Below are positions 4,770 to 48,454 of a DNA stretch of 64,000 bases, in pieces. Positions within the stretch are counted from its first letter, which is position 1. Every line of letters starts with the position of its first letter. Under the pieces are notes generated by a model. It saw only the letters and a list, made by a program, of their open reading frames with translations. It made no database searches and was not told the DNA's origin. The translations under genes were made by a program, and so were the position numbers. This DNA is from an uncultured virus (IMG/VR IMGVR_UViG_3300016472_001095). Lineage: Duplodnaviria > Heunggongvirae > Uroviricota > Caudoviricetes. The stretch is taken from IMG/VR virus record IMGVR_UViG_3300016472_001095; one strand, 5' to 3'.

Positions 4770-4770
4770 T

Positions 4771-7700: not shown

Positions 7701-8236
7701 ACGATGTAGATAATTATATAACTAAAACACCTACACCTTCCATTACACCTACAGCTACTCCAACGCCTTCAGTTACATCAACGATAACACCGTCACCTAC
7801 TAATACACCGTCACAAACAAGAACACCGTCGCAGACACCTACACAGACGCCGTCACAAACACCTACTATATCTAGAACACCTTCACCAACCGTTACACCC
7901 ACTCCTACTGATACACCTATTAATCCAAGTTATTTCACAGTAAATACTATAGGTGATGGTACTATTAAAACTTTATGTACCGGCACAGAAGCTGTAAATG
8001 TATTGCTTGTAGCAGGTGCGGAATTTGGCTGTGCATGTGTTGATGACGGCTCCGGCGCGACTGGTAGTACAGCAATTTATGTAAATAATGTACAGTACGG
8101 GACGTTTGGATGGGCAAATAGAAACTTAACTTCTATTATATTTAGATTTAGAATTAACTCCACAAGCCAATGGTATTATAGTTATTTTAATCACGAAGAT
8201 TTCAGAGTAGATTTTCCAAAAGATAACTTAACTTAA
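4771..8236 (+). CDS. Mucin-like Thr/Pro/Ser-repeat protein; one gene across the assembly gap
   Basis: TPT repeats continue on both sides of the N run; the post-gap TP frame is open from 6572 to 8236. Confidence 0.8.
4840..7910 (+). repeat. Low-complexity ACN-CCN codon repeats, recurrent [13 protein letters not shown] unit
   Basis: caacaagaacatcagcagagac recurs near 4937, 6148, 6281 and 6570; near-perfect tandem copies around 6973-7153. Confidence 0.9.
6408..6569. other. Assembly gap (162 N)
   Basis: Run of N. Confidence 1.
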
Positions 8237-8272
8237 ACTTAAGTATAATGTTCAAATTTAATAAATAATATT

Positions 8273-21553: not shown

Positions 21554-22303
21554 TTATAGAGAAAGAATATTTTCCTTATAATATTCTACACATTTTTTTG
21601 ATTTTTCTTCATCTAATAAATAGAATCCCCCATACCTAATTCTATGAAAGTACTTATAACCAGGAATTACTTTTATTTTACTATTATTCTTTAACAAACA
21701 ATACATCATTAATGCACAGTCTCCACCACTACAGTTTTCAGCGCTTATTGTATCATTTATTATCCCTTCAAAATAATTTTTACAACTGTCAAGAAAATTA
21801 TTTTTATTAACAAAAAAATTGCATAGGTTTAAAAAATTATTAATTATATTATTTTTTTGTTTTATTAAAACTTTAATACTATCTAAATCTACTTCATTAT
21901 AACCTATTCCTATTTTAATAATTGAAGAATCACTGCCAAAGAAAAACTCATCAGGAAAATAAACTGTTTTTTTATTCTTTTCCTCTAAAATAAATTTATC
22001 AATCATTCCACTGTATGTAAAGTTATCGCTATCTAACAAATAAACCCAATCGTTTTTGCAATATTGTATTGTTAAATATTTATTTTTAAACCCGCCTACA
22101 TTAGTTTTATTTTTATAAATTTTTATTTTTTTAGAATTTATACTACCTATAATATTTTCTAATTTAGAAAATTCCTCATCAAGCGACGCATCATCATTAA
22201 TAATTATATCATCAATATATTCACATTTTAAAAGCGGGTCGAGTAATTCATTTATATATTGTGAAGTATTAAAAAAAGGTACAGCAACAGATATTTTTTC
22301 CAT
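21554..22303 (-). CDS. GT2 family glycosyltransferase
   Basis: ISVAVPFFN, INDDAS, WVYLLDSDN. Confidence 0.9.
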   Translation of the reverse strand: MEKISVAVPFFNTSQYINELLDPLLKCEYIDDIIINDDASLDEEFSKLENIIGSINSKKIKIYKNKTNVGGFKNKYLTIQYCKNDWVYLLDSDNFTYSGMIDKFILEEKNKKTVYFPDEFFFGSDSSIIKIGIGYNEVDLDSIKVLIKQKNNIINNFLNLCNFFVNKNNFLDSCKNYFEGIINDTISAENCSGGDCALMMYCLLKNNSKIKVIPGYKYFHRIRYGGFYLLDEEKSKKCVEYYKENILSL

Positions 22304-24829: not shown

Positions 24830-24924
24830 TAAATAGATTATATGAGGGAGAACCTCACATGCTAAGTTGCATGAGCGCTAAGAACGCTTTGAAGATGTTA
24901 AGCCGCACCTTGTGCGGCTTTTTT
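24830..24924 (+). promoter_or_regulatory. TAAATA promoter plus four-hairpin structured leader or sRNA
   Basis: TGAGG/CCTCA, CATGC/GCATG and AGCG/CGCT hairpins, then a terminator. Confidence 0.6.
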
Positions 24925-25467
24925 ATTGGTTGGTTTATGTTGTCCGAATCCAAAGCAGTCTCTTCAATTGTACTATATGATGATTCTTTTACTATCATGG
25001 TAAATAACAACCCTGTTAGTGATCGCTATCTATCTGCTTTGTGGGGAACATATAGTAATGGTATTTTTAATCCTCTTCCTGATGGTACTGGGTATGTAGA
25101 CCCCGGGGTAGATTTTCTTGAGATGCAAATTAGTTATAGCAAGATTGATAATAGTGATGTATTAGCTAACACCCAGCTTGCCTTAGCTATATATGATGCA
25201 GACTTAGTTAACTTTACAGCTGCACCTTACAACAGTTTATATGATAAAGCTGTTCTTACGGATGTCTCTTGGCGGGCTCCACCTTTTGATAATACACCTA
25301 ATATGGAATCGTTTGCTCTTACTTCAAATACAACAGCATTAGTCGGTACGTTTTCTTACAACGGTGGTAATGAAACCATAGGGGTAGTACCAGAACCATC
25401 AACAATACATCTAACCTTACTTGGTTTACTAGCATTAAGGAAAAAATTTTATGAAAACAACAAATAA
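24895..25467 (+). CDS. PEP-CTERM sorting-domain protein 1 (start uncertain)
   Basis: C-terminal VVPEPSTIHLTLLGLLALRKK; signal-like MLSRTLCGFFIGWFMLSESKA. Confidence 0.85.
   Translation: MLSRTLCGFFIGWFMLSESKAVSSIVLYDDSFTIMVNNNPVSDRYLSALWGTYSNGIFNPLPDGTGYVDPGVDFLEMQISYSKIDNSDVLANTQLALAIYDADLVNFTAAPYNSLYDKAVLTDVSWRAPPFDNTPNMESFALTSNTTALVGTFSYNGGNETIGVVPEPSTIHLTLLGLLALRKKFYENNK
24900..24924 (+). terminator. Intrinsic terminator-like hairpin at the 5' end of the PEP-CTERM operon
   Basis: AAGCCGCAC-CTT-GTGCGGCTT-TTTT. Confidence 0.75.
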
Positions 25468-26245
25468 AACTAAGGCTGGCTTGCTAGCTGCATTGCTTGC
25501 TATCTTTAGTCTAAATACAACACATGCAGCTGTACTTGGTGTAGAAACTGGCTCCAACTATGCCCCCGGTACTTGGATAGAAGGAGCTAGTAGCAGTGTA
25601 GGTACTTGGTACTTCGTAAATGATACATCTGCAATCATTCAAATTGGTGATTCTTCTCAAGGAGGAAGAACTAGTATTGGTGTAGATGCATTTAATTTTG
25701 TACCAGGTAATACTGCATGGAATCAATACGCTAATGGTTGGTTTGTACTAAATGGGGGCGGTCTTTTAGCAGGCCAGACTCTCTCAGTAGATGCTAACTA
25801 TTTGTGGAATGGTGGTAACCGAGGAGTTGAATTCATGTCAGGAAATACAGCTGTATTTAGATTACAGCAAGTATGGTCTGATGCAATCAGCTTTGCAGGT
25901 ACAGGTATCACTCAAACAGAAGTACTTGCTAATGCTTATCAACAAGCATTAACCTATTCTGTAGATCAATTAGATCAGCTCACTGTACAAGTGTCTGCTT
26001 ATCTGTATGGTAATGCAAATGCGTTGTTTACACAAACAGTTACAGTTCCTGATTATATTACTGGTATTCACTTCTATGCAGGTGATATACAAACTACTGT
26101 TGCAGATCAGCCTAATTATGGGTTGTTTGTTAACAACATTGAAGTTTCAGGAATACCTGAACCTTCTGCAGGAGCGTTAATTATTCTAGGAGGATTAGGG
26201 CTACTTGCTATGAGAACATTAAAAAGAAAGGAGGTACTTACATGA
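25451..26245 (+). CDS. PEP-CTERM sorting-domain protein 2
   Basis: Signal peptide ending THA; C-terminal GIPEPSAGALIILGGLGLLAMRTLKRK. Confidence 0.9.
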   Translation: MKTTNKTKAGLLAALLAIFSLNTTHAAVLGVETGSNYAPGTWIEGASSSVGTWYFVNDTSAIIQIGDSSQGGRTSIGVDAFNFVPGNTAWNQYANGWFVLNGGGLLAGQTLSVDANYLWNGGNRGVEFMSGNTAVFRLQQVWSDAISFAGTGITQTEVLANAYQQALTYSVDQLDQLTVQVSAYLYGNANALFTQTVTVPDYITGIHFYAGDIQTTVADQPNYGLFVNNIEVSGIPEPSAGALIILGGLGLLAMRTLKRKEVLT

Positions 26246-26898
26246 ATAAAATTATTCTAGCTATATTTGTTAGTTTAGGGTTAGCTACAGCATCTTATGC
26301 CAATACCATGTATGCAGTTGGTGTTGGTTTCAGTGTAGATGCTTCTAGTTTGGATGCTATTAATCAAGCAACTACTTTCTATAACTTGCTTGGTGATACC
26401 CATGGCCCAAACCCTGCTAACTCTCTGCCTGCCAACCTGGGTACTATTAATGTGAATACTGGGGGGCTGCTACAATTAGCTGGTTCAACTGCTAAAACCT
26501 GGCAATCATCTACTGATTCAGCTAATGCAGTAACATTATACTGGAGAATATATGAAACAGGAGCCGTAAATAAAGGTTCTTATAATTCATACAACGTTCC
26601 ATTTAGTAATTCATGGAATCCAGATGGTAATGTTAACAAGTATTGGGATGCTAATACTTCTGTTAACTTGCTACAGAATGTAACTGCTGGTACTATAGAA
26701 GCACCTAAAGTATACACAATAGAGATGTATGCTAAAGCTGACTTTACATGGTCCAATGGAGGAAGCAGTGGTAGCTTTGAAAGCTATGCAAGCAATGGAG
26801 GGGTAAATTATTTAACTGAATTTACCGCTGTTCCTGAGCCTTCAATTCTATCTCTGTTAGGTTTGAGTGGACTACTTCTTCTTAAAAGGAGAAAGTAA
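26242..26898 (+). CDS. PEP-CTERM sorting-domain protein 3, possible starch-binding fold
   Basis: Signal peptide ending SYA; AVPEPSILSLLGLSGLLLLKRRK; SNGGVNY motif; AAAGGAGG SD. Confidence 0.9.
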   Translation: MNKIILAIFVSLGLATASYANTMYAVGVGFSVDASSLDAINQATTFYNLLGDTHGPNPANSLPANLGTINVNTGGLLQLAGSTAKTWQSSTDSANAVTLYWRIYETGAVNKGSYNSYNVPFSNSWNPDGNVNKYWDANTSVNLLQNVTAGTIEAPKVYTIEMYAKADFTWSNGGSSGSFESYASNGGVNYLTEFTAVPEPSILSLLGLSGLLLLKRRK

Positions 26899-26900
26899 GA

Positions 26901-27461
26901 ATGAAACAGCTGACAGCTACTGCATTTTCTTTAGTAGAGATGTTAGTAGCTGTCAGCGTCATTCTTTTACTTGTAGGTCTTTCTTTTCCAGCTTACCAAC
27001 ACGTACAAGAAAAAACTAAAATTTCTAAAGTGCAGAATGTAGAAATGAGAGGTCTGTACCAAGCTGTACAGCTTTATAAATCTGAACATGGGTTGTTTAC
27101 TTGGCCTGCACCTAGAAAGGGCTATCCTTTTGATCACGAATATTATGCATGGTATGGGCCCCCTACCAGAATACAAGATAGTAAGGATGTATTGGTATTA
27201 CTTCGTCCTTATTATGGAGAAGGTATTAAAGAAGACGGTACATTAGAAGATCCTTGGAAGAATCAATATTCATTAAAATGGGATATAGATGGCTCAGGCA
27301 AAGTAGAGTATTACGGAAAAAACTTTCAAGAAAATGTATCAAGAGATTTTATTGTTGTAAGTTTAGGTAAAAATCAAAAGCAGGACGATCCAAACAAACT
27401 ACCTTTTGATGATGTTTATAGTTTTTGTCCATATAAAGATAAGAAATTATTTGCCAAATAA
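26901..27461 (+). CDS. Prepilin-type N-methylation protein (GspG-like pseudopilin)
   Basis: A|FSLVEMLVAVSVILLLVGLSFP, AVQLYKSEHG, DPWKNQY, VSLGKNQ..DD. Confidence 0.9.
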   Translation: MKQLTATAFSLVEMLVAVSVILLLVGLSFPAYQHVQEKTKISKVQNVEMRGLYQAVQLYKSEHGLFTWPAPRKGYPFDHEYYAWYGPPTRIQDSKDVLVLLRPYYGEGIKEDGTLEDPWKNQYSLKWDIDGSGKVEYYGKNFQENVSRDFIVVSLGKNQKQDDPNKLPFDDVYSFCPYKDKKLFAK

Positions 27462-27469
27462 ATATTAAT

Positions 27470-30400
27470 ATGAAAAGAGCAATAGCATTTTTCATTTCTC
27501 TTTTTATTTCTGTTAATGTTCAAGCTGAAGCTATGCTTCAGTACTTTAATACAAGCTGGGCTGAAATTACTGCTAAGCTTCCTGAACTTGCAGAAGTAGG
27601 ATATGATTCATTATGGCTTCCTCCCCCTGCTAAAGCAGGCAGCGCTTATTCTGTTGGATATGATTTATTCGATCCATTTGATTTAGGTTCAAAAGATCAA
27701 AGAGGATCTACATTTACTAGGTATGGTACAGAAGCAGAGCTGATTATGTTAATTGAAACAGCCCATCGCTTTGGTATTAGAGTTTATTTTGATAATATTA
27801 TGAATCACCGCGGATTTGACACACCTGGGTATACTTTAGATACGCCTCTTGATTTATATCCAGGAATGAGACCAGAAGATTTTCATTTAAAATTAATGCC
27901 AGATGGTACATATAGAAAATGGTATAATACTAGTGATTGGGGTAATGTATGGGAAGTTCAAAATAGAGGGTTATCAGATTTAATTGATATAGCTACTGAA
28001 ACAGGTGTTTGGAATAAGAATCATGGTCCTGAAGAAGGTTGGTGGACACAAAAAGTTAAATTCTTAAGACACCCTAATAACCCTGAATACTATTGTTATG
28101 ATGCAAACGGTAATTATGTAGGGTTTGGTTATGAGAATGGTTTAACAGTAGAATACCTTGCTGCCAATGAAGAGTATTATTCAGAGTATGTTGAAGAATA
28201 TTTAAATAGATCAGTTCGTTGGTTCATGGATAGAACAAAATGTGATGGCTTAAGATTAGACGCTGTTAAGCATGTGCCATATGATTTCTTTGGTGCATCA
28301 TATGGTGCAGATAGAGATTTTTCTGATTACGGTTATGTAGGTCAAGCACAAAGACAGTTTAATATTTCCAGAGGATTTGCAGATATCAATCACCGTGATT
28401 CAGTTTTTAATACAGACATAGGAAGAGATGATGCAATGATGTTCGGTGAACATCTAGGTGAACCACCTCCTTACGGTGATTATATAAATTCAGGAATGCG
28501 TTTAGTAGATAATATTCTTAAGAGTAATCTTGATAATAGACTGGGTAATAATTTAACAGGATTTGATACTCAAGGTTCAGGTGGTTTTGGTGCAGATGTT
28601 GCTGTGATGCATTCACAATCTCATGATAATGGTTGGTCAACTGACCGGCACTTACAACATGCTTTTTATTTTACAAGAGCAGGTCTTCCTTTAATTTATA
28701 CAGATGGTAATTACCATGCAGGTGTTTTAACAAATTCAGGAGGAGAGTTTCCTCGCATTGCAAATTCAGCTTTTTTAGGACAGTGGTCAGATCCTAGAAT
28801 TCCTAATCTTGTAAAAATACATAATAATTTTTCTAGAGGTAGTCAGAAAGGAATATGGTCAGATAATGATTATGTTGCGTACGAAAGAATAGATAGAAGA
28901 TATGGTGCTTCTTCTGATGCAACTGGAGTCACGGGTATTACCATGATTAATGGGAACCGATGGAACGGTAGATCAGCTCCTATTACTTCTTCTTTTCCTC
29001 CCGGTGCATATTTGTTTCAATATGCCACAGGTCCTAATGGCTCTGGTCAAGTAGGTTTCTACAAATATGCTAATGAACTTCGAAACGTCATTGTCCCTCC
29101 TAGTAGTTACTATATGTTTTCTTACCGAACACCTGAAAGACCCTTAATAAACAATGGATATAATGCTATAAACATACTAGAAAACGGCACAAACGTACCT
29201 TACATAAAAGTTAAAAGAAAAGATGGAACTAATGGAGATGCTGCTTTTAACCCTTACGGATTAACTGATACTAATACAACAGACTTCACTTATGAAACCT
29301 ATATTCCAATTGTAAGGTCAGGGCAAAATCTAAGCTTTTTAGTACAGTTAGATGGTTCTACAGAAAATGTATTGATAAAACTTGATGGTGGGGTTGACGT
29401 TAACTCTCAAATGGGATTAGGGTCAATGACAGATATTAAGAGAGATTATCCGCCAGGAACTGATGATATGTTCTTGGGATACGAACAAATGAAATTTGAT
29501 TATAGAGTAAGAGATAAATTTGCAGCTGCTAATGTTACTAGAAATATTGTAGGGTCGCAAGGAGCAGAAACTTATATTGCAAGAAAAGGAGTAAGGAGGG
29601 TAAGCTACAATAATGGTAATGGATCAAATGCATTCTTTACTCCTACTGATTATATCTATCATGATCCAAATGTTATTGCAGATGGAAGAAGACAATTTAC
29701 TAATAGTGCTTCTGGTGCTACTATTAGAATTAAAACTGGCGAATATTATAACAACGCAAAATTGTTTGTTTATTATACAATAGACGGTAGTACGTTTCCT
29801 GAAGGTTATGGAGGCGCGCCTTTAAATAACACAACAAGGGTAATTGAAGCTACAAAAGAGTCTACAGGTCCTAATGATAGTAATGGAAAACCAACTTATT
29901 GGTGGGTAGCTAATATACCTTGGCCTACTACAGAATTAAGATATAAAATCGGTGGTACCTATATGGATACTTTAGCAGTATTTCCTTCTGATGGTAATAT
30001 GGTTAGTATAAAAGGTAAAATGGTATCTCAATTTTCTATTACAAACTTCAATGCTACTACGGTTGAAAATTATGTACATAATGATTTTATGAGCAAAAGA
30101 GTTGGATTAGAAGAGGGTTATCATGTATTAAGAGCCAGAGCATTTTTAAAGGCACCGGGGTTTACTCCCTACTACAACACTTTTACTCAAGTATTTTATT
30201 ATGACTCAAAAGCACCTACCGGTCAGGTTATATTTCCTCGCGCAGGAGAAACTTTATATTCAAGTAGTTATGAGTTTGTTATTAAAACAGATAGCACTGT
30301 CAAGGAAATGTATTATAATATAAGAGATGCAAACGCTCTTAATGATGATGCAGCAACCGGAGAGGTTAACGGAAATGGTGTTCTTGTCAATTCTAATCGC

Positions 30401-30628
30401 ACTCAAAGTACATTAGCATGGGCACCAGTTCCAAAAGTTGATATTAACAACAAGTATGAAAAAGAGTGGAGATTTACTTACAAGAATATACCATCATTTG
30501 GATCTGCATCTATTAAAATTGTAATGGTAGAAGATTCTATGGATTCAGACCCCGCTTCTTTAACGCAAGCAGCAGTTAAGAATAGCGCTACAATTAACTT
30601 TAGCTGTTTTACTCGTGCACCGCAATGA
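27470..30628 (+). CDS. Secreted GH13 alpha-amylase-family hydrolase with long C-terminal extension
   Basis: Signal peptide; MLQYF, LWLPPP, GYDLFD, DNIMNH, GLRLDAVKH (nucleophile D), GEH (acid/base E), SHDN. Confidence 0.93.
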   Translation: MKRAIAFFISLFISVNVQAEAMLQYFNTSWAEITAKLPELAEVGYDSLWLPPPAKAGSAYSVGYDLFDPFDLGSKDQRGSTFTRYGTEAELIMLIETAHRFGIRVYFDNIMNHRGFDTPGYTLDTPLDLYPGMRPEDFHLKLMPDGTYRKWYNTSDWGNVWEVQNRGLSDLIDIATETGVWNKNHGPEEGWWTQKVKFLRHPNNPEYYCYDANGNYVGFGYENGLTVEYLAANEEYYSEYVEEYLNRSVRWFMDRTKCDGLRLDAVKHVPYDFFGASYGADRDFSDYGYVGQAQRQFNISRGFADINHRDSVFNTDIGRDDAMMFGEHLGEPPPYGDYINSGMRLVDNILKSNLDNRLGNNLTGFDTQGSGGFGADVAVMHSQSHDNGWSTDRHLQHAFYFTRAGLPLIYTDGNYHAGVLTNSGGEFPRIANSAFLGQWSDPRIPNLVKIHNNFSRGSQKGIWSDNDYVAYERIDRRYGASSDATGVTGITMINGNRWNGRSAPITSSFPPGAYLFQYATGPNGSGQVGFYKYANELRNVIVPPSSYYMFSYRTPERPLINNGYNAINILENGTNVPYIKVKRKDGTNGDAAFNPYGLTDTNTTDFTYETYIPIVRSGQNLSFLVQLDGSTENVLIKLDGGVDVNSQMGLGSMTDIKRDYPPGTDDMFLGYEQMKFDYRVRDKFAAANVTRNIVGSQGAETYIARKGVRRVSYNNGNGSNAFFTPTDYIYHDPNVIADGRRQFTNSASGATIRIKTGEYYNNAKLFVYYTIDGSTFPEGYGGAPLNNTTRVIEATKESTGPNDSNGKPTYWWVANIPWPTTELRYKIGGTYMDTLAVFPSDGNMVSIKGKMVSQFSITNFNATTVENYVHNDFMSKRVGLEEGYHVLRARAFLKAPGFTPYYNTFTQVFYYDSKAPTGQVIFPRAGETLYSSSYEFVIKTDSTVKEMYYNIRDANALNDDAATGEVNGNGVLVNSNRTQSTLAWAPVPKVDINNKYEKEWRFTYKNIPSFGSASIKIVMVEDSMDSDPASLTQAAVKNSATINFSCFTRAPQ

Positions 30629-30882
30629 TAAATAATAATGATGAGCTTTCAAAGCTTATTCGACAAGCTAGTATTCGCAATAACCCTGGTAATGCGTATT
30701 TTGATAGTTTCCTTTCTCGCTATAAAATGTATAGTAATGCAAAAAGCAGAAGACAAAAAATCATGGTGGCTTTTACGATAATAGTCGTTACATTATTTTC
30801 AACATTGTTGGTAGTTGAAAAACTACACAGAAATACCTTAGATATACAAACTGCATCAGGAATAGAAAATGAATCTAAATGA
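30625..30882 (+). CDS. Small single-pass membrane protein with DIQTASG tail
   Basis: One hydrophobic segment after a basic stretch; ATGA-coupled to the amylase. Confidence 0.6.
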   Translation: MINNNDELSKLIRQASIRNNPGNAYFDSFLSRYKMYSNAKSRRQKIMVAFTIIVVTLFSTLLVVEKLHRNTLDIQTASGIENESK

Positions 30883-31090
30883 CAGAAAGATAATTGTTTT
30901 TGAAGGGGATGTTTGTGAAGTTGTAAAATGGATTAAAGAAAAATTAGGAAAGCATGAAGTTTTATGTTTAAGGGAATATTTTAATGATCAAAACGTCTAT
31001 GGTGTTTATTTAGAAGGGGATGAAAAGTTTAGATACTATTATGAATGTATAGGTAAAGGCCGATATACAGTATTTGTTATTAATGAATGA
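30869..31090 (+). CDS. Hypothetical protein
   Basis: 73-aa ORF overlapping the previous gene. Confidence 0.55.
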   Translation: MNLNDRKIIVFEGDVCEVVKWIKEKLGKHEVLCLREYFNDQNVYGVYLEGDEKFRYYYECIGKGRYTVFVINE

Positions 31091-31133: not shown

Positions 31134-31493
31134 ATGAGAAAAATAATTCTAGCAGTAATTTTGACAGTATTAGCATCTGTTTATGTTTTTGGACAAGATC
31201 AAATTTCTATTTCCATTAGTAAATCATCTTCCGGTGAATTAATTATGACAGTTAAAGGCCATACAACACCGGTCACTGTTAAAATAAACGATAAAGAAGT
31301 TACAATTCAAGTTAATGAAAGTGAAATTAATTTAACAGCTCTTGGTATTAATGAATTAACTGAAGTCTCAGTAGAAGAAGTAGATACTGCAGCGGGAAGC
31401 GAGACTTCAACAGATACCCAGGCTACTGCATCTCCAATACCACCAGTAAGCCCATTTATTTCCCCAACCCCTCCTCTTACCACTCCATTTTAA
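31134..31493 (+). CDS. Small secreted protein with EVDTAAG motif and Pro-rich tail
   Basis: Signal peptide MRKIILAVIL...VFG. Confidence 0.7.
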   Translation: MRKIILAVILTVLASVYVFGQDQISISISKSSSGELIMTVKGHTTPVTVKINDKEVTIQVNESEINLTALGINELTEVSVEEVDTAAGSETSTDTQATASPIPPVSPFISPTPPLTTPF

Positions 31494-32024: not shown

Positions 32025-32939
32025 ATGGCAGACGTAACAATATCTGGGTTAAATTCAGCACCTTCTGTAAGCTTGACAGACGTTCTTCCTATTTCTAACG
32101 GATCAACCACTTATAAAGCGTCTATACAGCAAATTTTATCTGTTAGCACTAGCGCCTATATGATTGATTATATTATTGTTGCAGGTGGCGGAGCAGGTGG
32201 TGGTAATTTAGGTGGTGGTGGTGGCGGCGGTGGGGTTATAAGCGGTACCACTTACGTTGATATTGGTCAAAGATATCCTGTAATTGTAGGTTCTGGAGGA
32301 ACAGCAGCTAACGGTACTTATAATAAGGGAGGAAATGGTCAACCTTCAGTATTTTTAGGGCAAACAGCAGTTGGAGGTGGTGGTGGTGGTTCAGGAGATG
32401 CTTGGAGAACGTTTTCCGGAAATAGAGGTGGATCAGGAGGAGGGTGTTCTGGATATAGAGATAGTTTAGAATTTGGACCGCAAGGTATACCAGGTCAAGG
32501 GTGTGATGGCGGTCAAGGAGGGGGTTACGGAGCAGGTGGAGGAGGCGGTGCTACTGGTCCCGGGCTTGTAGGGTTTGCTGCAGCAGGCGGTAACGGTGGA
32601 CCTGGATTTACTTGGGTTAACGGAACTGTTTACGGAGGCGGTGGCGGTGGTGCAGGGTACCCTAGTCCTGCAGGATCTGGAGGAACTGGAGGGGGTGGTA
32701 ACGGTGGTATTGGAAATACCACAGCAGCAGTAAATGGAACAAACGGATTAGGGGGTGGAGGCGGTGGCAGATCTTATAATGATTCGCCTTCTAATTCAGG
32801 TAGCGGGGGATCAGGAACTGTAATTGTTAGATATTACGGTTCCCAAAAAGCTGGTTCTTCAGGCGGTACAGTGACTTTTGCCGGGGGATATACTTACCAT
32901 ACATTTACAACAACAGGAGCTTCAACTTTTGTAGCATAA
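32025..32939 (+). CDS. Glycine-rich domain virion protein, paralogue 1
   Basis: MADVTISGL anchor; VAGGG...GSGTVIVRY...YTYHTFT. Confidence 0.8.
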   Translation: MADVTISGLNSAPSVSLTDVLPISNGSTTYKASIQQILSVSTSAYMIDYIIVAGGGAGGGNLGGGGGGGGVISGTTYVDIGQRYPVIVGSGGTAANGTYNKGGNGQPSVFLGQTAVGGGGGGSGDAWRTFSGNRGGSGGGCSGYRDSLEFGPQGIPGQGCDGGQGGGYGAGGGGGATGPGLVGFAAAGGNGGPGFTWVNGTVYGGGGGGAGYPSPAGSGGTGGGGNGGIGNTTAAVNGTNGLGGGGGGRSYNDSPSNSGSGGSGTVIVRYYGSQKAGSSGGTVTFAGGYTYHTFTTTGASTFVA

Positions 32940-32943
32940 AAAT

Positions 32944-33873
32944 ATGGCCGACGTAACAATATCTGGGCTAAACCCTGCACCTTCTGTTTCTATTACCGGG
33001 GTTGTACCTTATTCAGATGGAGCAACTACTTATAAAGCATCAATAAGTCAGTTATTATCATCTTTTTATGTTTTAGAAGCATTAGTTGTAGGAGGCGGGG
33101 GTTCAGGAGGGCATGGCTTTGCTGGCGGAGGCGGGGCTGGTGCAGTATTAGGAATACAAACTATAGCATATTCAGGAACTACATATAGAGTAGTGGTGGG
33201 AGCTGGTGGAGTTGCAACATCATCAAGAACAAGAGGAAACAATGGTGGTTTTTCTAGTTTTGCAGAAAACATAGCTACGGGCGGAGGCTCCGGTGCAGCA
33301 GGAAACATGGCTTATGAAATAGCTACAACCGGGGGGTGTGGAGGAGGCGGAAGCGGTGAAATATCACTTCAAGGTGCACCTGGATTATTTGGAGGCTCTG
33401 GTGGAAGAGGCTATAGCGGCGGTAATTATCCTGGTGGAGGAGGGGGAGGAGCTAATGGCAATGGTACTGATGCAACTTCATCTACCGGGGGTAACGGAGG
33501 TATCGGTACATCATTGTATTCTGCATGGGGAGCAGCTACAAATACTGGGCAACTCGCTGGTGGTATAAGATACTACGGAGGCGGTGGAGGGGGTAGTACT
33601 TATCAAGGTGGAACTGCAGGAGTTGGAGGGTTGGGCGGAGGAGGCGCAGGGAGTTCAAGTACAAATGGTACAGCTGGAACTGCTAATACTGGTGGCGGTG
33701 GCGGAGGCGGTGCATGGCAAAGTGGTGGATATAATGGTGGAGCTGGTGGTTCAGGGGTTGTGATAGTTAGATATTTAGGTAATCAACGAGGTACAGGAGG
33801 AACTGTTGTTTCTTCCGGTGGTTACACCTATCATACCTATACTGCAACTGGTGATAGCAGCTTTACTGCTTAA
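32944..33873 (+). CDS. Glycine-rich domain virion protein, paralogue 2
   Basis: Same architecture; 5' DNA nearly identical to paralogue 1. Confidence 0.8.
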   Translation: MADVTISGLNPAPSVSITGVVPYSDGATTYKASISQLLSSFYVLEALVVGGGGSGGHGFAGGGGAGAVLGIQTIAYSGTTYRVVVGAGGVATSSRTRGNNGGFSSFAENIATGGGSGAAGNMAYEIATTGGCGGGGSGEISLQGAPGLFGGSGGRGYSGGNYPGGGGGGANGNGTDATSSTGGNGGIGTSLYSAWGAATNTGQLAGGIRYYGGGGGGSTYQGGTAGVGGLGGGGAGSSSTNGTAGTANTGGGGGGGAWQSGGYNGGAGGSGVVIVRYLGNQRGTGGTVVSSGGYTYHTYTATGDSSFTA

Positions 33874-34667: not shown

Positions 34668-35669
34668 ATGGCCGATATAACCATTTCAGGTTTAACTCCT
34701 GTTTCAAGCTTGCTTAATAATGCTGTATTTCCTGTTTCTCAAGGAGGAACTACTTATAGTGCAACTGTATCTCAGCTAACCCAAGCCAATACACTATCGG
34801 CAGAAGTTTTATTAGTAGGCGGAGGTGCTTCTGGTGGTTATTGGTATTATGGTGGTGGCGGCGGTGGCGGTGGCGTTGTATTCTTGCAAAATGCTTTGTT
34901 TATAAAAGGGTGTTCATATAATATAGGTGTTGGTAAAGGAGGCGTCCCATATTATAGTAGAGGTGATTATATTGCGCAATACAACTGTATTGCAGCAAGG
35001 GGTGGAAGAGGCGGTGTAGATGGTACATCTTCTATAATCAATGGAACAGGATTGAGCTTGATTGCTTATGGTGGCGGAGGTGGCGGTGGAGACAGCTCTG
35101 GCGGTGACACAACGTCCTGTGGTGGGCGTCCTGGAGGTTCCGGAGGCGGTGCATCAATATATGCATGGTCGTATACTGGTGATGGAGTACCCGGGCAAGG
35201 TTTTTCTGGCGGTGGTGGTTCACAGCATCCTACTGTAGGTCCAGGCGGAGGGGGAGGTGGTGGAGGAGCTGGCGGAGTAGGGGGTACCGCTATTTCTACC
35301 AAAGGCGGAGATGGTGGACCGGGAATTCAATTATCAATAACAGGTACCTCTGTATATTATGGAGCTGGCGGTGGAGGTGCTGCATATAGCACAGCTGTTG
35401 GTGGAACAGGCGGCCTAGGCGGCGGAGGTAATGGGGCTGGTAATAGTTCTTGGAACAACGGTAATGCTACCGGTATTGGAGCTGGAGGAGGTGGCGGTTC
35501 ATATAGCGAAAACAATTATAACCCTGGTACCGGCTCAAATGGAACAGTAATTATTGCTTACCCAGGCACTCAAAAAGCCACAGGAGGAACTATAAGCACA
35601 GTTTCAAGATCTGGATATACAGTTCATACGTTTTCTTATCCAGGTGGAACCTTTACACCTAATTTCTAA
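34668..35669 (+). CDS. Glycine-rich domain virion protein, paralogue 3
   Basis: MADITISGL anchor plus Gly-rich domain. Confidence 0.8.
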   Translation: MADITISGLTPVSSLLNNAVFPVSQGGTTYSATVSQLTQANTLSAEVLLVGGGASGGYWYYGGGGGGGGVVFLQNALFIKGCSYNIGVGKGGVPYYSRGDYIAQYNCIAARGGRGGVDGTSSIINGTGLSLIAYGGGGGGGDSSGGDTTSCGGRPGGSGGGASIYAWSYTGDGVPGQGFSGGGGSQHPTVGPGGGGGGGGAGGVGGTAISTKGGDGGPGIQLSITGTSVYYGAGGGGAAYSTAVGGTGGLGGGGNGAGNSSWNNGNATGIGAGGGGGSYSENNYNPGTGSNGTVIIAYPGTQKATGGTISTVSRSGYTVHTFSYPGGTFTPNF

Positions 35670-40835: not shown

Positions 40836-42239
40836 ATGATTATTTGGGGTATAAACAATTTAAACCACGACGCGTCAATCTCTGTATTTAACAATACTAG
40901 TCATTTATTTTCTTCTCACAGTGAGAGATATTCGAGAATTAAAAATGACTACACACTTTGCGATAAAGTAATAGGTAAAGCATTTAGCTATGGCGATCCC
41001 GATTTGGTATTAATATCTGAAGACAATACTAAAAAGAAGTTAAGACAATTAATAACTCTAGATGAACGGTTTTTTGATTCGCATAAATCGTTTCTAAATA
41101 AATTTAAAATTAAAAAAATAAAGTTCATAGACCACCATAAATGTCACGCAGCTGCAGCTGCATATTCTAGCGGTTTTAATAATAGCTTGGTTTTTGTTTT
41201 TGACAGCATAGGTGAGTTTACTACATCGAGCACTTGGATTTTTAAAAATGGTAATTTAATTCTTATTCATAAATTAAACTATCCTCACAGTCTTGGGTTA
41301 TTTTATTCTGCCTTTACAGATCTACTCGGATTTAAACCTAACGAAGAAGAGTATATAGTAATGGGAATGGCCGCACACGGTTCTCCTATACATTTCGAAG
41401 AACTTTTAAATCTTTTTGAAATTAACCTACCAGACATAAAGATAAAAAAGAATTTACATAGAGGAATAAAATTTGATTTTAAAAACAAATTTGATTTAGC
41501 AGCTAGCGTTCAAGCAGTTTTTGAATATATAGTTTCTCTATATGTTCTTTACTTTAAGCATAAGTACAACATTGATAATGCGTGCTTTAGCGGGGGATGC
41601 TCTTTAAATTGTAAGTCTAATTCTAATTTTCTCAATATTTTTAAAAATGTATATATTTACCCCAATTCTGGAGATGCCGGCAACAGTATAGGGGCGGTAT
41701 TAAGCTATACTAAGTCTTTTTTTAACTACTCACCCTATTTAGGAGAAAATGTACCTTCCAACCTAGATGCAGAACAGATAGCGGATGAAATTATACAAAA
41801 TAAAGTTGTAGGTGTTATTAATGGTAGAGCAGAGTATGGGCCCAGAGCATTAGGAAATAGATCCATATTAGCTGATCCTAGAGATGAAAATATAAAAACA
41901 GTTTTAAATAAAATTAAAAATAGGGAATTGTTTAGACCTTTTGCACCTGTTATATTAAGGCATGAATTTCCAAATTATTTTGATACATCTGTTTACGATT
42001 CTAAGTATATGACTATGGTTTTTAAAAATAAAACTAATATTAAGAGTATAGAAAATGTAGATGGGACGTCAAGAGTTCAAACCGTAACTAAACAAGACAA
42101 TCGTTTATTATATGATATAATATATAGTTTTTTCTGTAAAACAGGCATACCCTTCCTTATTAATACATCTTTAAATGTAAAAGGTCAGCCTCTTGTTAAT
42201 ACCCACAGAGATGCCAAATTTAATTTTAAAGTTTTTTAA
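40836..42239 (+). CDS. Carbamoyltransferase (NodU/CmcH family)
   Basis: HDAS, ERYSRIK, DHHKCHAA, DSIGE, GGCSLN, GPRALGNRSILADP, RPFAP, NTSLN. Confidence 0.93.
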   Translation: MIIWGINNLNHDASISVFNNTSHLFSSHSERYSRIKNDYTLCDKVIGKAFSYGDPDLVLISEDNTKKKLRQLITLDERFFDSHKSFLNKFKIKKIKFIDHHKCHAAAAAYSSGFNNSLVFVFDSIGEFTTSSTWIFKNGNLILIHKLNYPHSLGLFYSAFTDLLGFKPNEEEYIVMGMAAHGSPIHFEELLNLFEINLPDIKIKKNLHRGIKFDFKNKFDLAASVQAVFEYIVSLYVLYFKHKYNIDNACFSGGCSLNCKSNSNFLNIFKNVYIYPNSGDAGNSIGAVLSYTKSFFNYSPYLGENVPSNLDAEQIADEIIQNKVVGVINGRAEYGPRALGNRSILADPRDENIKTVLNKIKNRELFRPFAPVILRHEFPNYFDTSVYDSKYMTMVFKNKTNIKSIENVDGTSRVQTVTKQDNRLLYDIIYSFFCKTGIPFLINTSLNVKGQPLVNTHRDAKFNFKVF

Positions 42240-42293
42240 TATTTAAACGAATCTTGCCTTTCAATCTTTTTTAAAAGCAAATATCTATAAATT

Positions 42294-43217
42294 TTAAATA
42301 TTATTTTTTTTAAAAGTTTCATAAAATTTGTCAGCTATCCATTCATTATAATTGTAACTATAATGCTCCCCATCTCTTGCATAGTTGTTAGGAATATCAT
42401 TAAACTTGCTTGTGTCTATCATATTAGAAGTATTAATATATTTGCTTAATATTTCACTGTTTTGAGATAACATCTTACATGTAGTACCCCATATTAAGGG
42501 TGTACCGTGCAGCATAGTTTCTATAAATTTAAAATTTTTTATAAAATTAAAAAAACTTTCATTAGGGTTAACAAGCTGTAAATAACCTGCATATTGCTCC
42601 TTACAACTATCATAATATGTTTTTCTATCGGTATTGTGTGTTTTACCGTTAGCAGTAGCGACATTAAAGTTTAATATTCTATTATCATCTGCTATATATT
42701 CTTTTCTATACATTCCAGGAAACAAAATAAAGACTGCTTTAGGCTTAATAGTACTAGTTGTTTGATAAACTAATCTAGAAATTGTATCTGCGCTACCCCC
42801 AATTAGACCAAAGTTTAACGGAGAATATTCAAAATTAAATTTAGAAGAAAGTATATATGGCCATGTTTCATCATCAGCTAACCCAAAACCAAACGTATTA
42901 CTGCAACCATAGCATAATAATTTATCCCGGGTTTCTGAAATATTATATTTTCTAAATGCGTTGTTATTTAAAGAGTAGCTAAAATCTTTTGCAAAATATC
43001 TATTTGTAGGATCGGTAGCTATGTGCTTATTAAAATAGTCTTCTTCATACTCAAATAAAAACTTTTTAGTTTGATTTTTTAAATATAATAATTCATGATT
43101 ACAGGGATCATTTACCCAATAATGATCATTAGTTAGTAAAAAATCTCTACTATTAGGAGCACATGCCTTTAACACATTATCCATAATATTCTTTACAAAA
43201 TTACTAGCACACGCCAT
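42294..43217 (-). CDS. SGNH-like hypothetical protein A
   Basis: YGCSNTFGFG..TWP..NFG..GGS..ARDGEH. Confidence 0.65.
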   Translation of the reverse strand: MACASNFVKNIMDNVLKACAPNSRDFLLTNDHYWVNDPCNHELLYLKNQTKKFLFEYEEDYFNKHIATDPTNRYFAKDFSYSLNNNAFRKYNISETRDKLLCYGCSNTFGFGLADDETWPYILSSKFNFEYSPLNFGLIGGSADTISRLVYQTTSTIKPKAVFILFPGMYRKEYIADDNRILNFNVATANGKTHNTDRKTYYDSCKEQYAGYLQLVNPNESFFNFIKNFKFIETMLHGTPLIWGTTCKMLSQNSEILSKYINTSNMIDTSKFNDIPNNYARDGEHYSYNYNEWIADKFYETFKKNNI

Positions 43218-44133
43218 TATTAAAAAGCTTATAAAAGCCCTCCGCTACATTAGAATGAAACATCTTTCCTAAATGCGAACCGTCTCGAGAAAAATCTCCA
43301 TTTACTTTACAGTTTAATAATTTCTTATCACTAAGTAAAGTATTATTAATATCTACAAATTTTTTTAATGTATTTAGAGAAATGTTCAGAATATCTGAAC
43401 AATGTGTGTACCAATAAAAAGGTATATTTTTCGATTTACATAAATGACTAATCAACTGATAATCTTTTACAAAACTATAAAAACAATTAACTTTATTCAT
43501 TAATCCTAAATAGTGCTTATAGTCTTCAGTTATTTCTTCAAAGTTAAAACTATTATTACCGTATTTTTGTAACTGTCTCATCCTATGAGACCCGGGAATA
43601 AAGTTTACTGACTCATTTTTTTTAGTAATATATTCTATAGCTGGTAAAGGGGTAAATACAGCAAAAACCGCTTTAATATTGTCCTTAGATGTTGAGATAG
43701 CTTGAAACGCTGTCCTGGCTATATTATTGTTTATTCCTGCTAATGTACCGAAATTTTTATAACCTAAATTCTTTATTTTTAAAAGATCATAAAGCTTATA
43801 AGACCATAAATCAGTATTTCCTAACCCCCATCCTAAAGTATGACAACATCCAAAGCAGTACAAATATTCACTTCCCTCTATTCCTTTTCTATATCCATTT
43901 TCATCAAACACATAATCTATTTTTTCGTTAAAAAAGGGATGGTTAGGATTAGCTGCAACCTCATTTAAGTAATGTGCTTCTTCCTCTGCATCTAGAAACT
44001 GTAGAGTATTATTTTTTTTATTTTTATCGCTACCCCAATGCTCAGGCGCGCCACACCACAGCTTTGATGAACAAATAGCTTCTTCTAAATCAAACATATT
44101 TGACTTGTTTATAAACTGTCTTATATCTATCAT
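43204..44133 (-). CDS. SGNH-like hypothetical protein B (paralogue of A)
   Basis: FGCCHTLGWG..NFG..SRDGSH; ATGA-coupled start at 44133. Confidence 0.65.
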   Translation of the reverse strand: MIDIRQFINKSNMFDLEEAICSSKLWCGAPEHWGSDKNKKNNTLQFLDAEEEAHYLNEVAANPNHPFFNEKIDYVFDENGYRKGIEGSEYLYCFGCCHTLGWGLGNTDLWSYKLYDLLKIKNLGYKNFGTLAGINNNIARTAFQAISTSKDNIKAVFAVFTPLPAIEYITKKNESVNFIPGSHRMRQLQKYGNNSFNFEEITEDYKHYLGLMNKVNCFYSFVKDYQLISHLCKSKNIPFYWYTHCSDILNISLNTLKKFVDINNTLLSDKKLLNCKVNGDFSRDGSHLGKMFHSNVAEGFYKLFNNGVC

Positions 44134-44825
44134 ACAGATAATACCGTGTCCCAAGGTATAAACCCTACATATACTGTCTCTCTAATTTTTTCAAAAGGCC
44201 TGCCCAATGAACCGTGAAATACATGTGAATCATGTACACAAATATCCCCTCTTTTTGCAACCATAGGTACAGCAGAGTTTTCATCATAATTTGTCTCATC
44301 AGTTAAATGCGACCCTTTACAAAAATACACACACGAATCTTCTGTAGTGTCATCTAAATATATTCCAAAGTTATAAGCTTTACGCCACTCGTCTTTAACT
44401 TTTAAATCTCTATGAAAAAACACTATACCCTCGTCGTTAGGGCGTTTTATGAGAATATTACTATACAATACCTTACATCTAAAAGAATAAAGATCATTAA
44501 TATAAGTCTTTAAATAGCTTTTTACTATATGATCTATATCATTTTTAAAAAATTCGTTTAAATTATGAATAGCCACTATATCTTTTTGATTATTAAAAAC
44601 CAGATTACCTGATTTTAAAGATTTTCTTTCTTTTTGACCGTCTAAAAGCTGAGAGGAATCAGCTGTCCCTTCAGACATATTTCTTAAAAACATATCTATA
44701 TTGTCGTAAAATTGCTTTTTCCATTTATTAACTCTAGCTCTTATATCCTGTAATCCCTCCTCGTTAATTGCATTTTTAATTAAGTAAACACCATCACTAT
44801 TAAGTTTTTCTCTTAATTCGGTCAT
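44130..44825 (-). CDS. PhyH-family 2OG-Fe(II) dioxygenase
   Basis: DGVYLIKNA, FHRD, GIYLDD, GSH, GD..FHGS..R. Confidence 0.88.
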   Translation of the reverse strand: MTELREKLNSDGVYLIKNAINEEGLQDIRARVNKWKKQFYDNIDMFLRNMSEGTADSSQLLDGQKERKSLKSGNLVFNNQKDIVAIHNLNEFFKNDIDHIVKSYLKTYINDLYSFRCKVLYSNILIKRPNDEGIVFFHRDLKVKDEWRKAYNFGIYLDDTTEDSCVYFCKGSHLTDETNYDENSAVPMVAKRGDICVHDSHVFHGSLGRPFEKIRETVYVGFIPWDTVLSV

Positions 44826-44859
44826 AAAGTTACTTAATTTTAGTTATTAAATAAACAAT

Positions 44860-45477
44860 CTATTTTTGGAACTTAATGTATAAGGTTGTTCTGCCTTCTT
44901 TATCCGAATTATCAGACCCATGCCATGTATAGCTATTATGAATAATTAAGTCACCTTTTTTTGCACTTATATAAGTCTTATTAATTTTAGCCTCATCAAA
45001 AGTATATTCCGTTGTAGCTATAGTATGACTGCCTTCTACAAAATACACCTTATCATTTTCACATGTATCATTTAAATATATACCACAATTATAATACGTA
45101 ACGTCTTTATTAAAAAGATTATCTACGTGACATGGTAAAACATTATCAATAAACTTTTTTCTTATAACTAATTGTGAAGACTTATAAACTCCTAAATTAA
45201 AAATGGTTAACCTATCAACAAACTTTACAACATCTTTTTCCTCTAAATTAATTTTAAATATTTCCCAGCAATTTTCTTTTTTACCATAGAATTCATTACC
45301 TAATTTAAAATTTTTTCCGTCATTTTCATTACCAGGAATAAGAGGATTAAGCGTGTTGATAAGAGAAGTTTCGTGTTTTTTATATATAAAATCGCATTCC
45401 TCAGGGGAAAAAAAGCCACATATTTTTACGTACCCTTTTTTATCTAAATTATCTATATAAGGTAAAATTTCCGTCAT
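44860..45477 (-). CDS. PhyH-family 2OG-Fe(II) dioxygenase
   Basis: KGYVKI, CHVD, GIYLND, GSH, WHGS..GR. Confidence 0.85.
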   Translation of the reverse strand: MTEILPYIDNLDKKGYVKICGFFSPEECDFIYKKHETSLINTLNPLIPGNENDGKNFKLGNEFYGKKENCWEIFKINLEEKDVVKFVDRLTIFNLGVYKSSQLVIRKKFIDNVLPCHVDNLFNKDVTYYNCGIYLNDTCENDKVYFVEGSHTIATTEYTFDEAKINKTYISAKKGDLIIHNSYTWHGSDNSDKEGRTTLYIKFQK

Positions 45478-46364: not shown

Positions 46365-46381
46365 AATTATATTTACCTTTG

Positions 46382-48420: not shown

Positions 48421-48454
48421 AGTTTAATATTTTAATAGTCTACATATATATTAT

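Follow-up and report, generated by a model that had tools for sequence, protein, structure and literature searches.

In Klebsiella, the pullulanase (Pul) type II secretion system (T2SS) has as its cargo the GH13 enzyme PulA, a lipoprotein, which depends on the major pseudopilin PulG. In the Bacteroidetes Sus system, the surface GH13 enzyme SusG works with the glycan-binding proteins SusD/E/F encoded in one locus, and the system uses lipoprotein anchors and a TonB-dependent transporter. A further route to the cell surface, the PEP-CTERM/exosortase (EpsH) protein-sorting system, was reportedly described by Haft in 2006 and 2012. In phages, auxiliary genes are usually single enzymes. Here we analyse a five-gene cassette carried by a 64,000-nucleotide stretch of DNA (hereafter the window) of an uncultured virus of the Caudoviricetes (IMG/VR record IMGVR_UViG_3300016472_001095). 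The cassette encodes three PEP-CTERM proteins (p1, p2 and p3), a prepilin-type protein (p4) and a GH13 alpha-amylase-family enzyme. An earlier note, made from the letters of the window, had described it as a phage-encoded cassette; it is indeed borne by a phage, but it is not a phage invention, since homologues of p2, p3 and p4 are found beside a homologous amylase in Verrucomicrobiota. In our judgement it is very probably a host-related module that needs the sorting machines of the host.

The five open reading frames (ORFs) are all on the + strand and span 24859-30628. The first, p1 (24859..25467, +), encodes a 202-aa PEP-CTERM protein recognised by TIGR02595 and by its tail motif. It is followed by p2 (25451..26245, +), a 264-aa protein identified as PEP-CTERM by its family alignment, with a concanavalin A-like (ConA-like) beta-sandwich ectodomain in its AlphaFold2 (AF2) model, and by p3 (26242..26898, +), a 218-aa PEP-CTERM protein also recognised by TIGR02595. 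The fourth gene, p4 (26901..27461, +), encodes a 186-aa prepilin-type, GspG-like pseudopilin, assigned by its N-terminal motif and its family, and the last one (27470..30628, +) encodes the GH13 enzyme of 1052 aa, which is predicted to be secreted and was assigned by PF00128 and a fold model. The ORFs overlap or nearly abut: the spacings at the four junctions are -17, -4, +2 and +8 nt, and therefore the genes are tightly coupled as well as co-oriented, as the note had stated.

The carrier is a jumbo phage, probably of about 230 kb. The claimed embedding among phage genes was confirmed by tail-fibre and baseplate PHROGs, an M15 endolysin 3 kb from the operon, a dCMP deaminase, an exonuclease and three tRNAs. 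The note had also proposed that the gene order be sought in IMG/VR, and the same operon is present in a record of 229,717 bp, where its DNA is around 80% identical; CheckV estimates the completeness of the record at 100%. This record is the genome of a related phage, L001, which we used for most comparisons; a second IMG/VR contig represents the same relative. When IMG/VR was searched with the p4 family alignment, only two contigs were found, both of one relative phage. Furthermore, a metagenome scan with the p4 family gave ten low-GC contigs (GC 0.33-0.38), one of them being the 229,717-bp record. The order p1-p2-p3-p4-amylase is complete in 4 of the ten, the IMG/VR record included, and is cut by contig ends in 4. 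The protein clusters comprise 86-119 member sequences.

A bacterial fragment mis-joined into a phage contig, or a set of decaying passenger genes, could in principle give the same picture, and the upstream edge near 24.75 kb is a recombination point, where the flanks differ among relatives by indels of 1-2 genes. Nevertheless, independent assemblies carry the cassette with homologous genes on both flanks, with such small indels at both edges. The GC content at third codon positions (GC3) of the five genes is 0.20-0.27, compared with a mean of 0.206 (sd 0.033) for the other 51 genes of the window, and so they are as AT-rich at these positions as had been claimed. No bacterial homologue is more than 54-62% identical, and the DNA around these homologues has a GC content of 48-63%, as against 33-38% in the phage contigs. 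The ratio of non-synonymous to synonymous substitution rates (dN/dS) between the window and L001 is 0.08 for p1, 0.19 for p2, 0.10 for p3, 0.09 for p4 and 0.06, the lowest of the five, for the amylase; the endolysin gives 0.09. All five genes are under purifying selection. Because of the independent assemblies, the common flanks, the phage-like GC3 and the purifying selection, a chimera or a decaying passenger is very unlikely, and we give this explanation almost no credence; the chimeric junction that the note had named as a possible refutation was not found. Nested tree position (see below), phage-like GC3 and purifying dN/dS are together the marks of an auxiliary host-derived phage gene.

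Regarding the PEP-CTERM proteins, the C-termini of p1, p2 and p3 all consist of Pro-Glu-Pro, a hydrophobic helix and a basic Arg/Lys cluster, and each protein has an N-terminal signal (here and below, export signals and signal peptides were judged by reading the N-termini). The profile scores are at the border. With TIGR02595 (cut-off 16 bits) p1 scores 16.4, p2 14.9 and p3 20.4 bits, and with PF07589 (cut-off 20.7 bits) p1 reaches 19.3-19.5 and p3 18.8 bits, both below the cut-off, and p2 has no hit. The motif itself is conserved. PEP is invariant in 5 p1 variants, in 19 p2 relatives (P236-E237-P238) and in 14 p3 relatives (P198-E199-P200), and VVPEPS, the hydrophobic stretch and RKK of p1 are kept in the phage variants that reach the tail. 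Furthermore, the relative phage has 4 PEP-CTERM tails in its cassette, and all of them score above the cut-off, at 19.4-22.7 bits. Since the family alignments keep PEP and the L001 orthologues pass the cut-offs, we consider the sorting motifs real despite the sub-threshold scores. Thus, the claim of three PEP-CTERM proteins stands as far as the motif is concerned, and the support from the curated profiles is uneven: p1 and p3 pass TIGR02595 and p2 is below it, and p1 and p3 are below the cut-off of Pfam.

The three proteins differ in their relatives. The 30 Atlas clusters nearest to p1 are all PEP-CTERM, and p1 is a weak relative of the p3 family (hhalign probability 87%, E 4e-6). We also considered p1 as a relative of A7, a PEP-CTERM family encoded around 200-250 bp upstream of the amylase in Chthoniobacterales-type bacterial loci, and rejected it, as the match was confined to the tail. 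For p2 we found 22 relatives among 5.8 billion clusters. Its AF2 model has a predicted local distance difference test (pLDDT) of 84.2 and a terminal helix at 240-262. VIA-align scores the model at Z 16.6 against a non-catalytic domain of the BT_1020 sialidase, at 15.5 against SO2946 and at 13-14 against enzymes of GH131 and GH16; lectins and carbohydrate-binding modules (CBMs) score lower, and Foldseek returned lectin and CBM folds. The modelled ConA-like beta-sandwich of p2 would therefore fit glycan binding. Regarding p3, 100 representatives were found at E<=1e-3, half of its own Atlas cluster is viral, and its Atlas model resembles the N-terminal domains of Bacteroidota surface proteins with a type IX secretion system (T9SS) tail, with template-modelling scores (TM) of 0.66-0.71.

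The cassette of L001 carries 4 PEP-CTERM tails, as against 3 in the window. At L001:7211-8779 (+) the fourth PEP-CTERM gene (around 255 aa) reads in frame and without a stop into the p2 orthologue, giving an ORF of 522 aa. Its N-terminus looks LamG/ConA-like, and its basic tail also serves as n-region for the signal peptide that follows; the 755-bp piece that holds it is absent from the window. An A7 ConA-like domain was found in another phage, L004, which has a stand-alone amylase: a fibre-like protein of 1045 aa, rich in Pro/Thr linkers (L004:13627-16764, -), contains this domain (hhalign 96.8%, E 2e-10, 48% identity over 103 columns). None of the fibre-like proteins of the window itself matched the A7 domain.

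The prepilin-type protein p4 begins with MKQLTATA, a short basic leader, followed by FSLVEMLVAVSVILLLV; thus it has A at -1, F at +1 (FSLVEM at the start of the predicted mature part), E at +5 and a helix, as in prepilins. The family keeps the F-x-x-x-E motif, E13 being nearly invariant in 15 members, with Ala or Gly at -1. With TIGR02532 (cut-off 16.3 bits) p4 of the window scores 13.8 bits, and it has no hit with PF07963 (cut-off 21.2 bits), but its orthologue in L001 scores 17.9 bits with TIGR02532. PF07963 is present in 7 of the 18 p4 relatives listed, and the bacterial homologues score 21-32 bits with it. Therefore, the pseudopilin claim is upheld by the family motif and the L001 orthologue, and it is not upheld by the score of the window copy. 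The N-terminal part of p4 also matches the GspG and ComGE models below their cut-offs; the GspG equivalog TIGR01710 (cut-off 88.85 bits) gives 26.7 bits over residues 8-66 only. Because this equivalog fails and no gsp genes are found near p4 in the window, we call p4 GspG-like and not a GspG. Full-length bacterial homologues are 35-36% identical to p4 and have the motifs DPW..Y..K.D...EYY and S.G.N..Q.D in common with it. Relatives of p4 match PF08334 (T2SSG; cut-off 21 bits) N-terminally at 22-26 bits, and one of them bears the label 'pseudopilin PulG' in its source.

The relative phage has a second pair of this kind, 190 kb from the cassette (L085:3881-5328, -, corresponding to around 12.9-14.3 kb of G001:C1). 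It consists of a 238-aa PEP-CTERM protein (PF07589, 22.8 bits) and, immediately after it, a 244-aa prepilin-type protein (TIGR02532, 20.3 bits) that matches phrog_3433 'pilin'. The gene order, PEP-CTERM and then pilin, is that of p3 and p4.

The GH13 enzyme scores 46.6 bits with PF00128 (cut-off 22) and resembles amylases of the PRK09441 type. Six residues, D108, H113, R262, D264, E327 and D386, show no variation among 14 and among 50 homologues, so that the catalytic D/E/D triad (D264, E327 and D386) is kept, as had been read from the sequence. The AF2 model, made with a 50-sequence alignment, has a pLDDT of 84.8 and a predicted TM (pTM) of 0.86. Residues 18-555 form the A/B/C amylase domains, and VIA-align places the model on the Bacillus licheniformis amylase 1vjs (Z 29.0, 393 residues, root-mean-square deviation 3.7) and on the Pyrococcus woesei amylase 1mwo (Z 27.3, 383 residues, 3.1). 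Both the catalytic residues and the modelled (beta/alpha)8 barrel with B and C domains thus argue for membership of GH13, and from homology and fold the substrate would be an alpha-glucan. Residues 556-1052 (497 residues) are beta-rich, and for them we found no Pfam or PDB sequence match and no TSP3 or GH57 hit. In a search of BFVD, the only GH13 look-alike was a giant-virus protein, the other hits having TM around 0.1.

The surroundings of the enzyme in other phages bring up the possibility that the GH13 protein is structural and acts as a virion-associated depolymerase, cutting surface glucan at adsorption. The amylase of L004 follows directly on portal and head-tail adaptor genes, and the C-terminal beta-domains of the window protein are weakly like the immunoglobulin-like repeats of tail fibres (BFVD, TM around 0.1). 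However, every phage copy that we read (window, L001, L003 and L004) starts with a Sec-type signal peptide, as the bacterial homologues do, which would take the protein out of the cytoplasm, where virions assemble. Furthermore, the amylase of the window lies in an operon of exported proteins and not among tail genes. Given the signal peptide on every copy read, we regard a virion depolymerase as most improbable.

If these products are exported and sorted, the machines must come from somewhere. Among the window ORFs of at least 90 aa, profile scans found no exosortase, A24 peptidase or T2SS family, in line with the earlier observation that no exosortase, prepilin peptidase or T2SS core is in the window. 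The complete relative phage has the 4 cassette PEP-CTERM tails, a fifth PEP-CTERM gene elsewhere and 2 prepilin-type genes, and in its genome we found 0 exosortases (PF09721), 0 A24 prepilin peptidases and no T2SS ATPase above the cut-off. A cognate exosortase in the same genome, which normally accompanies membership of the PEP-CTERM system, was thus found neither in the relative phage nor in the window, and therefore the exosortase would have to be that of the host. In contrast, the nearest bacterial clade, Opitutia, has the machinery: in 5 of 5 metagenome-assembled genomes (MAGs) there are 1-2 exosortases, together with one A24 peptidase and 4-5 secretins. These results support the view that the phage supplies the substrates and the host supplies the machines, and the proposal that the phage plugs its own substrates into host machinery is supported to this extent. 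In Akkermansia, according to PMC4960237, 23 PEP-CTERM proteins are predicted, nine of them detected by mass spectrometry, and a PilQ-type secretin is the most abundant outer-membrane protein.

More than 1000 proteins match the amylase. The bacterial amylase loci were taken from one genome per species, and the best 80 of 578 matching genome stretches were assessed; all of these 80 are from Verrucomicrobiota. The identity of the best segment to the phage amylase is 46-54%, and 59-66% in six loci cut by contig ends. Phage residues 1-1052 align end to end with the full-length host loci, with the signal peptide at the same position and the same catalytic residues. With about 1470-1670 aa or about 2750-2900 aa, the ORFs of the hosts are far larger; in one of them (L050), PF00128 is accompanied by a TSP3 repeat and by a GH57 stretch, each scoring slightly under its cut-off. 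The phage protein ends at 1052 aa and so does not have this full GH13-TSP3-GH57-like architecture. As the host ORFs are much longer, the sequence comparison indicates that the phage amylase copies only the N-terminal half of a giant GH13 protein of Verrucomicrobiota and is thus truncated. In the amylase tree (FastTree, 90 rows, local supports), the 4 IMG/VR rows group with 7 environmental amylases (support 100) in a clade made up of two sub-clades, the second of which includes L003 and L004. This clade is sister (support 95) to 7 Opitutia/Puniceicoccaceae rows and is nested within the phylum.

The bacterial neighbourhoods were assessed by genome-wide best-hit tests and by hidden Markov models (HMMs) of the cores only; regular-expression counts of PEP-CTERM and pilin ORFs near host amylases were not used as evidence, because such genes are probably so frequent in these genomes that chance would place them there about as often. 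Homologues of p4 lie 1.2-1.5 kb upstream of the amylase in three MAGs. In 3/3 genomes with a match, the genome-wide best p4 hit is the amylase-adjacent gene, which is also the only p4 hit that extends beyond the N-terminal helix into the C-terminal domain. The genome-wide best p3 hit likewise adjoins the amylase in 2/2 Luteolibacter MAGs with a match, as a divergent PEP-CTERM ORF. An HMM of p3 without its tail confirmed this, with E-values of 1.6e-37 (L025), 1.2e-18 (L082) and 9e-11 (L073), and added a Lentimonas locus. The p2 family matches the amylase-adjacent family A7 (hhalign 99.3%, E 2e-20, 229 columns), of which there are only 3-8 copies per genome. These relationships need profiles: single-sequence phmmer with the tail-less cores found nothing at E<=0.01 among the host PEP-CTERM ORFs. 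The sequence evidence thus indicates that the cassette mirrors bacterial gene arrangements. The whole set may have been acquired at once, from an unsampled host, or piecemeal.

Some bacterial contigs with p4 homologues have further features. On the metagenome contig L129 (2-9564, GC 0.55), a p4-like pilin gene at 8956-9564 (+) faces a run of minus-strand genes for a 684-aa protein, two GH13 proteins (835 and 622 aa) and an amylase of the giant family; from its gene content this looks like an alpha-glucan locus headed by a pseudopilin. The contig L103 has two pilins and then a surface protein with a sub-threshold CBM20. In L138 (5634-9573), a p4-like gene has a second pilin upstream, and on the opposite, divergent side there are three ORFs, plus a 991-aa protein; the N-termini of two of these ORFs are of the prepilin type but fall slightly short of the Pfam cut-off.

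The export routes, the substrate and the benefit for the phage are what we infer, beyond the observed gene content, homology, folds, selection, host-like neighbourhoods and the presence of the machinery in candidate hosts but not in the phage. The phage would infect Verrucomicrobiota-type (Planctomycetes-Verrucomicrobia-Chlamydiae, PVC) bacteria and re-equip the surface of the infected cell to bind and cut alpha-glucan. The GH13 enzyme and p1-p3 would leave the cytoplasm via Sec. The prepilin peptidase of the host would cleave p4, which would then join a type II secretion or pilus-like filament of the host, and the p4-containing filament could help the cargo to cross the outer membrane. The host exosortase would recognise the PEP-CTERM tails, trim p1-p3 and fix them at the surface, where the lectin-like beta-sandwich domains may keep the glycan substrate or matrix near the enzyme. 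The net effect would be more maltodextrin for the infected cell during phage replication. Such foraging, by capture and hydrolysis of alpha-glucan at the infected-cell surface, is the use that we favour, while putting it at slightly less than an even chance. In bacteria, the homologues are accompanied by further GH13 genes and, in L050, by a LacI-type regulator-like ORF, identified by reading its sequence. A further and more doubtful step would be that p4 is a cargo-specific adaptor, so that the phage would redirect two host sorting systems at once and turn the cell into a starch-harvesting or glycan-gripping 'virocell'.

The same proteins might instead remodel the envelope or matrix. In this case the enzyme and the lectin-like proteins would act on an alpha-glucan capsule or on exopolysaccharide (EPS) of the host and not in feeding; this would release the progeny, remove the receptors from infected cells and from debris, or prevent superinfection. 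PEP-CTERM/exosortase systems are reportedly tied to EPS producers (Haft, 2006). The closeness of the operon to the M15 endolysin and the small membrane or secreted ORFs downstream of it would also suit this use, as would the two short contigs described below, which retain a p2-like gene and p4 in the absence of the amylase. The fibre-like protein of L004 shares its ConA-like domain with the host family adjacent to the amylase, and therefore gives a hint that the domain binds host surface glycan; however, the fibre-like proteins of the window gave no match to it. We know of no alpha-glucan capsule in Verrucomicrobiota, and the bacterial homologues, with the regulator-like ORF in L050 and the GH13 genes in L129, look more like nutrient use. 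On balance we consider remodelling rather unlikely.

The variants that have only parts of the cassette raise another question, namely whether the enzyme is essential to its function. Two short contigs, L096 (1159 bp) and L097 (1232 bp), appear to be variants in which p4 (77-78% aa identity) comes after a p2-like gene (58-61%), and in L096 two small ORFs, p6 and p7 (see below), come after p4, with neither p3 nor the amylase between p4 and p6. These contigs would agree with a role in adhesion or aggregation, in which the PEP-CTERM and pilin-like proteins alter how the cell sticks to particles, algae or other cells and the amylase is optional. The second PEP-CTERM and prepilin pair of the relative phage, which has no enzyme, the variable number of PEP-CTERM genes (3 in the window, 4 in the L001 cassette), the likeness of the p3 model to T9SS-tail surface proteins of Bacteroidota and the host-family lectin-like domain of the L004 fibre-like protein point in the same direction. 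Nevertheless, the amylase is the most conserved of the five genes by dN/dS, and it is the sole part common to both phage sub-clades, so we find adhesion as the main function improbable. In Zoogloea, according to PMC12642866, PEP-CTERM proteins are required for flocs, a role that would suit adhesion as well as matrix remodelling.

Several findings weigh against the reading of the cassette as a host-related module for alpha-glucan foraging. Regarding the proteins, p2 and p4 in this copy are below the cut-offs of the curated profiles, p4 is far from the GspG equivalog, and in the C-terminal half of the enzyme no starch-binding module is recognisable by sequence. A secreted enzyme would, moreover, bring a diffuse benefit in a lytic cycle. 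The parts are also separable: L003 and L004 are phage contigs with a stand-alone amylase of 1174-1179 aa, and L096 and L097 keep the p2-like gene and p4 without p3 or the amylase. On the bacterial side, the host is assigned from gene phylogeny alone (the FastTree local supports given above), and no p4 homologue was found at E<=1e-3 in two Opitutia genomes. There are 72 host loci whose upstream DNA covers 1.5 kb or more, and in only 16 of them does a p2-, p3- or p4-like gene lie no further than 4 kb away, a count that is descriptive, as the a7core and p4core models were partly built from loci that they hit. None of these 16 loci is in the Opitutia sister clade. Finally, the amylase was seen on only 1 of the 45 high-GC contigs with a p4 homologue, many of which are short.

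Regarding the limits of the operon, the p1 ORF has three possible starts, 24772 (the longest form), 24859 and the in-frame alternative 24895, all with the stop at 25467. The note had taken 24895, which we replace by ATG 24859. This is most likely the start, because a Shine-Dalgarno-like GAGGGAG, read directly from the sequence, lies at 24844..24850 (+), 8 nt 5' of the ATG, and because the start is common to 5/5 phage variants of p1. GAGGGAG is identical in L001, inside a block around 90% conserved, and the start at 24859 gives a signal peptide with a longer, basic n-region than that at 24895. A terminator-like hairpin of 9 pairs followed by TTTTTT lies at 24900..24920 (+), within the signal-peptide codons of p1. 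Its stem is identical in L001 and 2/3 loop bases differ; it may be an attenuator or due to chance. A promoter scan was no better than shuffles (37 sites, shuffle mean 35.4).

At the other end, the operon probably extends through three small, conserved and co-oriented ORFs to 31493. The start of p6 (30625..30882, +; 85 aa, one hydrophobic segment) overlaps the stop codon of the amylase; p6 is 43% identical in L001 at the amino acid level, with a dN/dS of 0.39, and profile scans with Pfam and NCBIfam found no family for it. Next comes p7 (30869..31090, +; 73 aa), with 79% identity and a dN/dS of 0.07. The last of them, p8 (31134..31493, +; 119 aa), has a signal-peptide-like N-terminus and a Ser/Thr/Pro-rich tail and is conserved in L001 with 65% identity and a dN/dS of 0.16.

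Other features were observed around the cassette and in the rest of the window. In L001, a ferredoxin-dependent bilin reductase gene (L001:5315-5992, -; PF05996, 54 bits) lies just upstream of the cassette, and an ORF at L003:20267-20923 (-) looks like it, by appearance only; to our knowledge, this enzyme is unusual outside cyanophages. Around the endolysin of the window there are three Gly_rich_2 (PF21722, phrog_2295) paralogues (32025-32939, 32944-33873 and 34668-35669, all +), of which the first two are absent from the relatives L093 and L094, marking a variable spot. A modification island at 40836-51894 encodes a carbamoyltransferase, three PhyH-type dioxygenases, a GT8 glycosyltransferase, an asparagine-synthase-like amidotransferase, a methyltransferase and a radical SAM/SPASM protein, and a GT2 is encoded at 21554-22303. 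The region 4000-8300 is raised in GC, with a strongly negative GC skew (to -0.57), and it has long open frames on the two strands (4771-6606, +, and 4809-6593, -). The proteins of the + strand have matches to phrog_15511, like the fibre-like proteins of L004.

The note had also stated that no described phage system of this kind was known to its author. In the PHROGs there was no match at E<=1e-5 for any of the five genes, and the cassette DNA, the amylase, p3 and p4 have no match among 50,697 GenBank phage records. A tailed phage with a cassette of PEP-CTERM, pseudopilin and amylase genes was not found in the literature, supplements not covered. Within these searches, the statement can be kept for the cassette as a whole, but not for all its parts, as pilin-like phage morons already have a PHROG (phrog_3433). 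On the bacterial side, the linkage of p2, p3 and p4 homologues to the amylase in Verrucomicrobiota appears, from the sequence comparisons, to be new here.

The meaning of the cassette lies in its dependence on the cell. This is a whole operon whose products would be useless unless the host provided three pathways, namely Sec, exosortase, and a prepilin peptidase together with a secretion filament. If this interpretation is true, host takeover extends to the surface-sorting systems of the cell, and the phage offers small, naturally minimal substrates for the poorly understood PEP-CTERM/exosortase pathway. The cassette also exposes a conserved link between amylase, lectin-like PEP-CTERM proteins and a dedicated pseudopilin in Verrucomicrobiota, though not a universal one, which could explain how these polysaccharide degraders export and hold their enzymes. 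Should p4 be a cargo-specific adaptor, the genes would bring to light an as yet unnoticed system of Verrucomicrobiota, one where the giant amylase of the phylum is served by a pseudopilin dedicated to it and by ConA-like PEP-CTERM proteins. Finally, the genes of the cassette hint at the host of a jumbo phage lineage that is uncultured and widespread.

Compared with known systems, the cassette is closest in its enzyme to the giant verrucomicrobial GH13-TSP3-GH57-like protein, with which phage residues 1-1052 align at 46-54% and with the same catalytic residues, but the phage copy is without the TSP3 repeats and the GH57-like tail. It is like the Pul T2SS in that a Sec-exported GH13 enzyme is encoded together with a GspG/PulG-like pseudopilin, and by analogy with PulA the phage amylase might depend on p4. 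However, the phage has one pseudopilin in the cassette, without secretin, ATPase, platform or peptidase, and p4 fails the GspG equivalog cut-off. The likeness to Sus would be one of working mode only, a surface amylase and separate surface proteins from one locus; the sequences are unrelated, and glycan binding by p1-p3 is only proposed. As in the PEP-CTERM/exosortase system, p1-p3 have an N-terminal signal, a PEP motif, a hydrophobic helix and a basic tail, but here the substrates are phage-encoded, with no exosortase or EPS locus in cis, and the many-to-one pairing runs across two genomes. The closest printed item, as far as the available part of the source shows, is a PEP-CTERM-domain protein, HOG10, of the Dehalococcoides virus-like element IME1 (bioRxiv 10.64898/2026.09.15.751708). 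There, too, a PEP-CTERM domain rides on a mobile element, a virus-like one; however, its host belongs to another phylum, IME1 is a putative filamentous or budding virus, and the same part of the source names neither an amylase nor a pseudopilin. Like viral auxiliary metabolic genes and morons such as the 'pilin' phrog_3433, the cassette is host-derived and kept under selection in a phage, but it differs from them in being a multi-gene operon that combines an enzyme with the substrates of two different host sorting systems.

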